Virus record (IMG/VR): IMGVR_UViG_2703718812_000010
DNA: 43,350 bases
Direction: 5' to 3' (one strand)
From: a virus
Taxonomy: Duplodnaviria > Heunggongvirae > Uroviricota > Caudoviricetes
Shown here: positions 42,623 to 43,350 of the stretch, piece by piece
Numbering within the stretch: the stretch's first letter is position 1
Layout: each line of letters begins with the position of its first letter
Made by a program: the position numbers and the translations under genes
The notes under the pieces: model-generated
Told to the model about the DNA's origin: nothing
Database searches by the model: none
The model's input: only the letters and a program-made list of their open reading frames with translations

Positions 42623-42888
42623 AGAGGCGTATCTGCGTCGCGGTGTCCGTGTGGAGCGGAGTCTGAACGCTGATCGTCTGACCTGGACCGTTTCTGTATA
42701 TCTTCCTGTTCGTGCACATCTGCCACGGACACATGCCTGCTACCGTCAGCGCGTCTGGAGGTAATGTGCGGGTATTACTTCGACCTGTTCTGGTTCCGGA
42801 ACTCGGGCTGGTGGTCCTTAAGCCCGGTCGTGAATCATTGCCAGTTTTTCATCGCGGCAGGGTGCTGGTGGAGCCGGAACCGAAAAAC

Positions 42889-43350
42889 ATGCGGGCGCTG
42901 CCATCTGGAGCGGTTCCTGCTGTTCGCCAGCCGCTGGCGGAAGATAAATCACTGCTGCCATTTTTCAGCGATGAGCGGGTGATTCGTGCAGCTGGCGGCG
43001 CTGGTGCACTGTCTGACTGGTTATTACGTCACGTGAAATCCTGCCAGTGGCCACACGGCGATTATCATCACAGCGAAACCGTTATTCACAGTTACGGTGC
43101 TGGCGCAATGGTGTTGTGCTGGCACTGCGACAACCAGCTGCGCGACCAGACCTCCGAATCACTTGAGCAACTTACTCAACAAAATCTGACAGCCTGGATG
43201 ATTGACGTCATACGCCATGTAATGAATGGCACGCAGGAGCGGGAATTATCGCTGGCTGAATTATCCTGGTGGGCAGTCTGCAATCAGGTGGTGGACGCAT
43301 TACCTGAGGCAGTATCGCGTCGCTCTCTGGGATTACCGGCGGAAAAAATC
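42889..43350 (+). CDS. prophage-like hypothetical protein, partial (runs off window end; not in ORF track)
   Basis: Open frame with no stop from at least 42889 (ATG; an upstream ATG at 42733 is also in frame) to the window end; Cys/His-rich segment CQWPHGDYHH...CWHCDNQL. Confidence 0.4.
   Translation, partial: MRALPSGAVPAVRQPLAEDKSLLPFFSDERVIRAAGGAGALSDWLLRHVKSCQWPHGDYHHSETVIHSYGAGAMVLCWHCDNQLRDQTSESLEQLTQQNLTAWMIDVIRHVMNGTQERELSLAELSWWAVCNQVVDALPEAVSRRSLGLPAEKI

Follow-up and report, generated by a model that had tools for sequence, protein, structure and literature searches.

Within the His-Me finger nucleases, DUF968 proteins form group 7 together with DUF1364/YbcO and are encoded beside neighbours such as RusA and Q (PMC5714182). 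HNH domains of the DUF968 type also occur fused to recombination proteins (PMC4118853), and Gp16 of the phage PhiNM1 was experimentally shown to be a RecA-interacting and RecA-dependent HNH nuclease (PMC12817073). Ref from bacteriophage P1 (PDB 3plw), a distant relative, also acts as an HNH endonuclease that depends on RecA, and nuclease activity has been shown for it. In the literature searched, no enterobacterial member of the YdfU clade has been tested biochemically and therefore a nuclease or recombination role of these proteins is one that we infer. The YdfU family is common in EHEC prophages and continues to be counted among the E. coli 'y-ome'.

The window, i.e. the whole stretch of 43,350 nucleotides that was analysed, ends within an open frame on its plus strand. 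With high confidence, this frame represents the 5' 195 codons of an intact and ordinary YdfU/DUF968 gene of a lambdoid prophage that is cut by the window edge only. A preliminary description had reported a frame without stop from 42733 or 42889 to the last base. As it continues past the window edge, it is absent from the ORF list, which omits ORFs running off the source. The frame that includes 42733 is open throughout 42682..43350, corresponding to 223 sense codons directly after a TGA at 42679-42681, and the last base of the window is a codon boundary. The remaining five frames contain between 6 and 10 stops each in the same 669 bases with a longest stop-free run of 99 codons, and the probability of finding no stop in 223 codons is approx. 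1.5e-4 at the local composition of 55% G+C (stop probability of 0.039 per codon). Counted from the ATG at 42889, 154 amino acids are encoded within the window, in agreement with the minimum of 154 given before.

Window 42613-43350 was 100% identical to a lambdoid prophage segment in hundreds of E. coli (EHEC) genomes, and 516 out of 5,426 complete E. coli genomes matched at least 80% of a query covering 42500-43350. The gene is already known, as hundreds of E. coli genomes have an annotation for it; RefSeq labels it 'DUF968 domain-containing protein' in the matching genomes, with a small hypothetical protein ahead of it. In O157:H7 PV15-279 (L001), the DUF968 gene covers L001 6154-7203, corresponding to window 42766 up to the window-equivalent position 43815, and encodes 349 amino acids (WP_001265229.1). 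Assemblies with the same junction as the window were located by looking up a hybrid ORF of 61 amino acids that spans it. One of them (L013; GCA_012704885.1, contig AATBUS010000042.1) had 0 mismatches over 3,772 bases (window 39579-43350) and extends 2,022 bases past the window. Its ORF closes at 349 codons with a product 100% identical to WP_001265229.1, and is followed by rusA and then by a DUF1133/Q-like antiterminator gene. The preliminary description had proposed to extend the sequence past 43350 and to run a homology search, and had named a stop in the frame or a very short extended ORF as evidence against its claim. The extension led to a DUF968/YdfU-like protein of 349 amino acids behind an identical junction, and no stop is present in the frame.

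The Pfam model DUF968 (PF06147) has a gathering threshold of 27.8 bits. The fragment encoded in the window reached 28.2-28.4 bits on profile positions 1-35 only, as just the beginning of the match (residues 160-195; 43243..43350, plus strand) lies inside the window and the remainder including the canonical HNH motif lies outside. The full-length protein scored 259.4 bits with residues 160-346 on profile positions 1-171. It also matched phrog_96 ('HNH endonuclease') with an E-value of 2.6e-174, residues 1-348 covering positions 1-333 of the 334 in this profile. Seventeen phage records contain DNA with 84-87.5% identity and carry the labels YdfU family or HNH endonuclease. No NCBIfam family was found for the 349-aa protein or for its 90-aa neighbour. 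PADLOC gave only a noise-level match to PglZ (13.7 bits) and therefore no link to a defence system.

Candidate starts in the frame include GTG 42712, ATG 42733, GTG 42766 and ATG 42889. A Shine-Dalgarno sequence GGAGG, read from the sequence, is located at 42757..42761 on the plus strand, 4 nt before GTG 42766, and no such motif was found ahead of the other in-frame candidates. Between GGAGG and the GTG, the upstream gene terminates with TAA (42762-42764). A stop/start layout with the Shine-Dalgarno sequence inside the end of the upstream gene is typical of coupled genes, and the arrangement at 42757-42766 suggests translational coupling of the upstream gene to the ydfU-like gene. RefSeq uses the start equivalent to GTG 42766 in the identical DNA of L001, phrog_96 aligns from residue 1, and homologues retrieved exhaustively from 1.84 billion cluster representatives aligned residue 1 to residue 1 at identities as low as 25-30%. 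Because of the Shine-Dalgarno sequence, the RefSeq start, the phrog_96 match and the N-termini of the homologues, the start was placed at GTG 42766. It is the best-supported one, so that the window most likely holds codons 1-195 (42766..43350, plus strand) of the 349-codon gene ending at the window-equivalent position 43815. The ATGs at 42733 and 42889, from which the frame had been read before, are both in-frame, and a few database entries have longer N-termini from upstream starts, e.g. P0118, which begins upstream of '...GGNVRVLL'. However, an SD-like motif is missing before both ATGs, the first one falls within the upstream gene that ends at 42764, and a start at the second one would drop 41 family-conserved residues, which a confident model folds into three strands and a helix. 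With the GTG position being the start in RefSeq, phrog_96 and about 30 distant homologues, initiation at either ATG is highly improbable. The open frame as reported was right, and only the two start codons need correction.

The gene borders on a Mu-like transposable prophage of about 38.8 kb (3785..42613, plus strand) with its right end at 42612/42613. Pfam models identified a CI-type repressor (4141-4752, minus strand), a Ner-like HTH protein (4909-5175), a MuA-type transposase (5186-7276; Mu-transpos_C and HTH_Tnp_Mu_1), MuB (7348-8280; Phage-MuB_C) and Mom (41748-42485; 258.4 bits). Com is annotated at the right end in identical copies of the prophage. The element hence has the gene set of a Mu-like phage, namely, a MuA-type transposase and the MuB ATPase, with Com/Mom lying at its right end. 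A protein of 685 amino acids with SASA (sialate O-acetylesterase-like) and DUF6645 domains is encoded near this end at 38402-40459 (plus strand), and the host lambdoid prophage also contains a frameshifted DUF6645 gene further downstream (L001 10776-12633; L012 17550-19398).

Six independent insertions together with empty sites were compared to define the element ends. The sequence is TGTAACCAGG... at the left end and ...CGCCGCGCTATA at the right end. All six insertions (L003-L007, L009-L011) end with ...ATCGCCGCGCTATA, the last A of which is window 42613, and in K-12 pspG the target has another base in place of this terminal A. Comparison of three insertions with their targets pointed to a 4-bp duplication, namely, TATG here, GTAG in araG (UTAK-15) and TACG in O157 ECP19-198. 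In the window, TATG is located at 3781-3784 on the left and at 42614..42617 on the right. ATATG is repeated at both junctions and, with A42613 counted as host, the duplication would be the 5-bp ATATG (3780-3784 / 42613-42617). Canonical Mu generates a 5-bp target-site duplication and has TG...CA termini. The left end of the present element begins with TG as well (TGTAACC at 3785); in contrast to Mu, a 4-bp duplication is indicated and the right terminus is TA (...TATA) and not CA. A G preceded the left end in three out of three cases.

A right-end query (41700-42700) was matched by 585 out of the 5,426 complete genomes of E. coli. Among the matches listed, copies sit in araG, pspG, dprA, creC, irp1 and an ABC permease gene, and this spread over many genes fits active random transposition of the prophage. 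Just downstream of mom, a 13-nt inverted repeat (GAAAAGCGCCGAT / ATCGGCGTTTTTC) with a 21-nt spacer is followed by a T-run (42516-42562). End repeats of the type GTATCAAA occur at 42532, 42567 and 42589 with left-end counterparts TTTGATAC at 3802 and 3897. The inverted repeat may be a terminator or, as it overlaps with one of the GTATCAAA repeats, part of a transposase-binding end.

The flanks of the element match one continuous segment. Window 1269-3784 corresponds to L001 3490-6005 and window 42613-43350 to L001 6001-6738, and therefore the two flanks abut in the uninterrupted site. This empty site, which reads ...CAGATATGCTTC..., was found in O157:H7 PV15-279 and O103:H2 12009. The surrounding lambdoid prophage adjoins rspAB, which is the chromosomal position of Qin in K-12. 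The gene order at the site is hok/sok, a BOF-family gene, a 90-aa gene, the ydfU-like gene, rusA and the gene of a Q-like antiterminator, i.e. a 'nin' region. The intact region of O103:H2 12009 consists of exo, dicB, repressor/cro, ydaT, replication genes, DUF1627, DUF551 and hok/sok followed by BOF (YgiW-like), the 90-aa gene, DUF968, rusA, the Q-like gene, tRNAs, TerB and DUF6645/SASA. The sole Rfam match of the window, a sok antitoxin RNA at 2749-2923 (plus strand, 113.5 bits), lies in the left flank and is part of the host lambdoid prophage's hok/sok module, L001 and L012 having a Hok/Gef CDS annotated at the corresponding location; nothing was found with Rfam in the right-flank region.

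The 90-aa gene is intact in L001 (5880-6152; WP_000191872.1, phrog_1212) and is split after about codon 41 in the window. Its 5' part is located at 3659..3784 (the gene start L001 5880 being window 3659) and a 3' remnant of about 50 codons at 42614..42764, both on the plus strand. Judged from these comparisons, the 38.8-kb Mu-like prophage has entered the 90-aa gene by transposition, with 153 bp between it and the ydfU-like start downstream, and therefore the right-flank ORF marks a site inside another prophage. The preliminary description had expected the ORF to begin about 110-270 bp outside the prophage end, which fits the distances of 120 bp (42733), 153 bp (42766) and 276 bp (42889). It had also proposed that the ORF helps to define the insertion site and had suggested an insertion in or next to another prophage; the abutting flanks bear out the former and, given the empty lambdoid sites, 'in' is the right word for the latter. 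With this, the right boundary of the Mu-like prophage is fixed and the start of the gene is corrected.

The remnant is the tail of the hybrid 61-aa ORF (42579-42764) that begins in the right end of the Mu-like prophage and runs into the 90-aa gene. This ORF was called as a gene in GCA_012704885.1, GCA_012816115.1 and SRR3394836. Its match to Erm37 was rejected as noise (16 bits compared to a cut-off of 350). This Mu-like prophage is absent from this site in all 5,426 complete genomes of E. coli, the best coverage of the junction query being 87%, while draft assemblies do carry the junction.

The insertion separates the replication and early region from ydfU, rusA and Q, and therefore the phage-in-phage arrangement probably cripples the host lambdoid prophage. 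A further reading, which concerns the expression of the ydfU-like gene and not its identity and is thus compatible with the main explanation, is that the gene is intact but silenced: ydfU-rusA-Q would be cut off from the early rightward promoter, and Q and the late genes would stay unexpressed. A scan of 42300-43000 revealed no sigma-70-like promoter, and the hairpin with its T-run lies after mom; on these grounds, the gene may have been left without transcription, and expression of Q may no longer be possible for the host prophage. The scan was a crude consensus search, however, and the hybrid ORF 42579-42764 is still stop/start-coupled to the ydfU-like gene, so that read-through from the right end of the Mu-like prophage could still drive its translation. 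Silencing is accordingly put forward tentatively, with its probability lying clearly below one half.

The preliminary description had pointed to a Cys/His-rich segment, and this segment is real. It reads CQWPHGDYHHSETVIHSYGAGAMVLCWHC and comprises residues 93-121 counted from GTG 42766 (window 43042-43128); extended to N123, it constitutes a putative zinc-binding beta-beta-alpha module from C93 to N123 (43042..43134, plus strand). No Pfam, NCBIfam or PADLOC model matched residues 1-159. The family of this N-terminal region is small with 199 representatives at E<=1e-3 among 1.84 billion proteins. C93 and C118 are present in all of 26 full-length homologues, whereas position 101 is His in 14 and Cys in 10 of them and position 121 is His in 17 and Cys in 9. 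Such a pattern would be expected if C93, H/C101, C118 and C/H121 formed a zinc site with four ligands. The AlphaFold2 model of the 195 residues encoded in the window is confident with a mean pLDDT of 88.2 and contains strands 105-110 and 113-118 and a helix 119-125, i.e. a beta-beta-alpha unit with the predicted ligand quartet. An unannotated, weakly HNH-like N-terminal domain with a putative zinc site is the only mildly new point about the gene.

The modelled module weakly resembles HNH domains. Compared with HNH structures, the N-terminal model scored 5.1 with IscB, 4.4 with EcoKMcrA, 4.0 with Cap5, 4.0 with GVE2 HNH, 3.9 with P1 Ref, 3.4 with ZRANB3, 3.3 with Hpy99I and 3.3 with YbcO. Foldseek of the same model against the PDB gave nothing below an E-value of 1. 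When the N-terminal segment was aligned with the protein's own C-terminal HNH motif by hhalign, the Cys and His residues fell in the expected register with an E-value of 0.12, which is not significant. A secondary BLASTP HSP placed residues 88-118 on the HNH region of Gp16 (E 0.099). Position 102, at which strand 1 ends and the catalytic His would be expected, is occupied by His in 13 of the 26 homologues and by S, D, T or M in the rest, and is hence not conserved as a catalytic residue. From this, the segment appears to be a structural zinc beta-beta-alpha module that serves binding and not catalysis, and is perhaps a decayed HNH finger. More specifically, the N-terminal domain of about 160 residues might have arisen as a duplicate, now degenerate, of the HNH finger at the C-terminus of the same protein, which would make YdfU a tandem His-Me finger protein with an inactivated module that targets DNA or RecA; we give this slightly less than an even chance.

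The same resemblance would also suit a second and catalytically active HNH site, i.e. a tandem nuclease. In this protein, the pairs H101-H102 and D122-N123 sit at the would-be HNH catalytic positions, D122 is conserved in 24 and N123 in 18 of the 26 homologues, and the HSP to the HNH region of Gp16 points in the same direction. However, His is found at position 102 in just half of the homologues, H101 is exchanged for Cys as a zinc ligand would be, and neither E-value establishes a significant relation to HNH at the sequence level. An active second site is therefore unlikely, and a structural module remains the preferred reading. A different identity of the domain, namely, an Orf/NinB-like recombination mediator, is suggested by the Gram-positive DUF968/HNHc_6 proteins PhiETA Orf20 and PhiNM1 Gp16. 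NinB-like N-terminal domains fused to this type of HNH domain have been described (Curtis et al. 2014, PMC4118853; Gp16, PMC12817073), and the ydfU-like gene occupies the nin region. This candidate was rejected as the domain has neither sequence nor fold similarity to lambda Orf (PF05772, PDB 1PC6), and its probability is very small.

The C-terminal domain, which is encoded beyond the window, contains the motif CxxC...DPHH...CREHHNELH. Out of 26 homologues, C276 is conserved in 26, C279 in 22, H287 and H288 in 23 each, D303 in 26, and C310, H314 and H318 in 23 each, while position 313 is Cys in 14 and His in 8. A full-length model, built on the 81%-identical homologue P0121 and not on the exact protein, showed strands 285-288 and 306-309 followed by a helix 311-319. 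The domain has the hallmarks of a His-Me/HNH nuclease, i.e. zinc ligands around a beta-beta-alpha unit, a conserved His in the place of the general base, a further His in the helix and fold similarity to solved HNH nucleases. Searching the full protein against PDB sequences with phmmer gave no match at E<=1. In a profile search against the PDB, YbcO alone was found with marginal sequence similarity (E 0.48).

Taken together, the protein would consist of three parts. The N-terminal domain (approx. residues 1-190) would be a zinc-held module like a degenerate HNH finger that is probably non-catalytic and whose most likely role is the binding of DNA or of a partner protein. It would be followed by a disordered linker and by the C-terminal His-Me (HNH) nuclease domain, which appears closest to P1 Ref and YbcO. 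Because of the analogy with Ref and PhiNM1 Gp16 and the place of the gene next to rusA, the protein would most likely nick or cleave recombination or replication intermediates during lytic growth beside RusA. On this analogy, we consider the chances to be about even that the ydfU-like product is a phage HNH nickase or nuclease acting on such intermediates. Sequence and predicted structure now allow the YdfU family to be linked to Ref and Gp16, two experimentally characterised RecA-dependent nucleases, and this link together with the conserved predicted zinc site provides a concrete hypothesis that can be tested for a gene whose function is unknown.

Among the known systems, YdfU of K-12 Qin (b1560, NP_416078) is the closest. 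It also comprises 349 amino acids, of which 297 are identical (85%, gapless), and has the same Pfam DUF968 architecture. Its gene is likewise located upstream of a Q-like antiterminator in a prophage next to rspB. In contrast to K-12 Qin, rusA is found between the ydfU-like gene and Q here. The upstream neighbour differs, too: ydfU of K-12 is preceded by rem with a gap of 346 bp, whereas the unrelated 90-aa gene takes this place here. The gap between ydfU and rem is unannotated in K-12 Qin (L002 1305-1652), and the 90-aa phrog_1212 gene is found there in EHEC prophages. The 90-aa gene was considered as a homologue of K-12 Rem and rejected, as the two have no similarity.

YbcO of prophage DLP12/82 (DUF1364, PDB 3g27) has 96 residues and is devoid of the whole N-terminal domain encoded in the window. 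PhiNM1 Gp16 (ABF73046.1) has 223 amino acids and originates from a phage of a Gram-positive host (Staphylococcus). It belongs to the Pfam family HNHc_6 and also scores above the DUF968 threshold. Its HNH core is 39% identical to the 349-aa protein over 59 amino acids with a pairwise E-value of 8e-10; the motif CxxCGKP...LCREHHNExH is common to both, with LCREHHNE being identical. Gp16 is encoded near rusA as well. At the position of the N-terminal domain of YdfU, however, the Gram-positive relatives PhiNM1 Gp16 and PhiETA Orf20 contain a NinB-like domain, and the one of Gp16 is unrelated to the domain encoded in the window.
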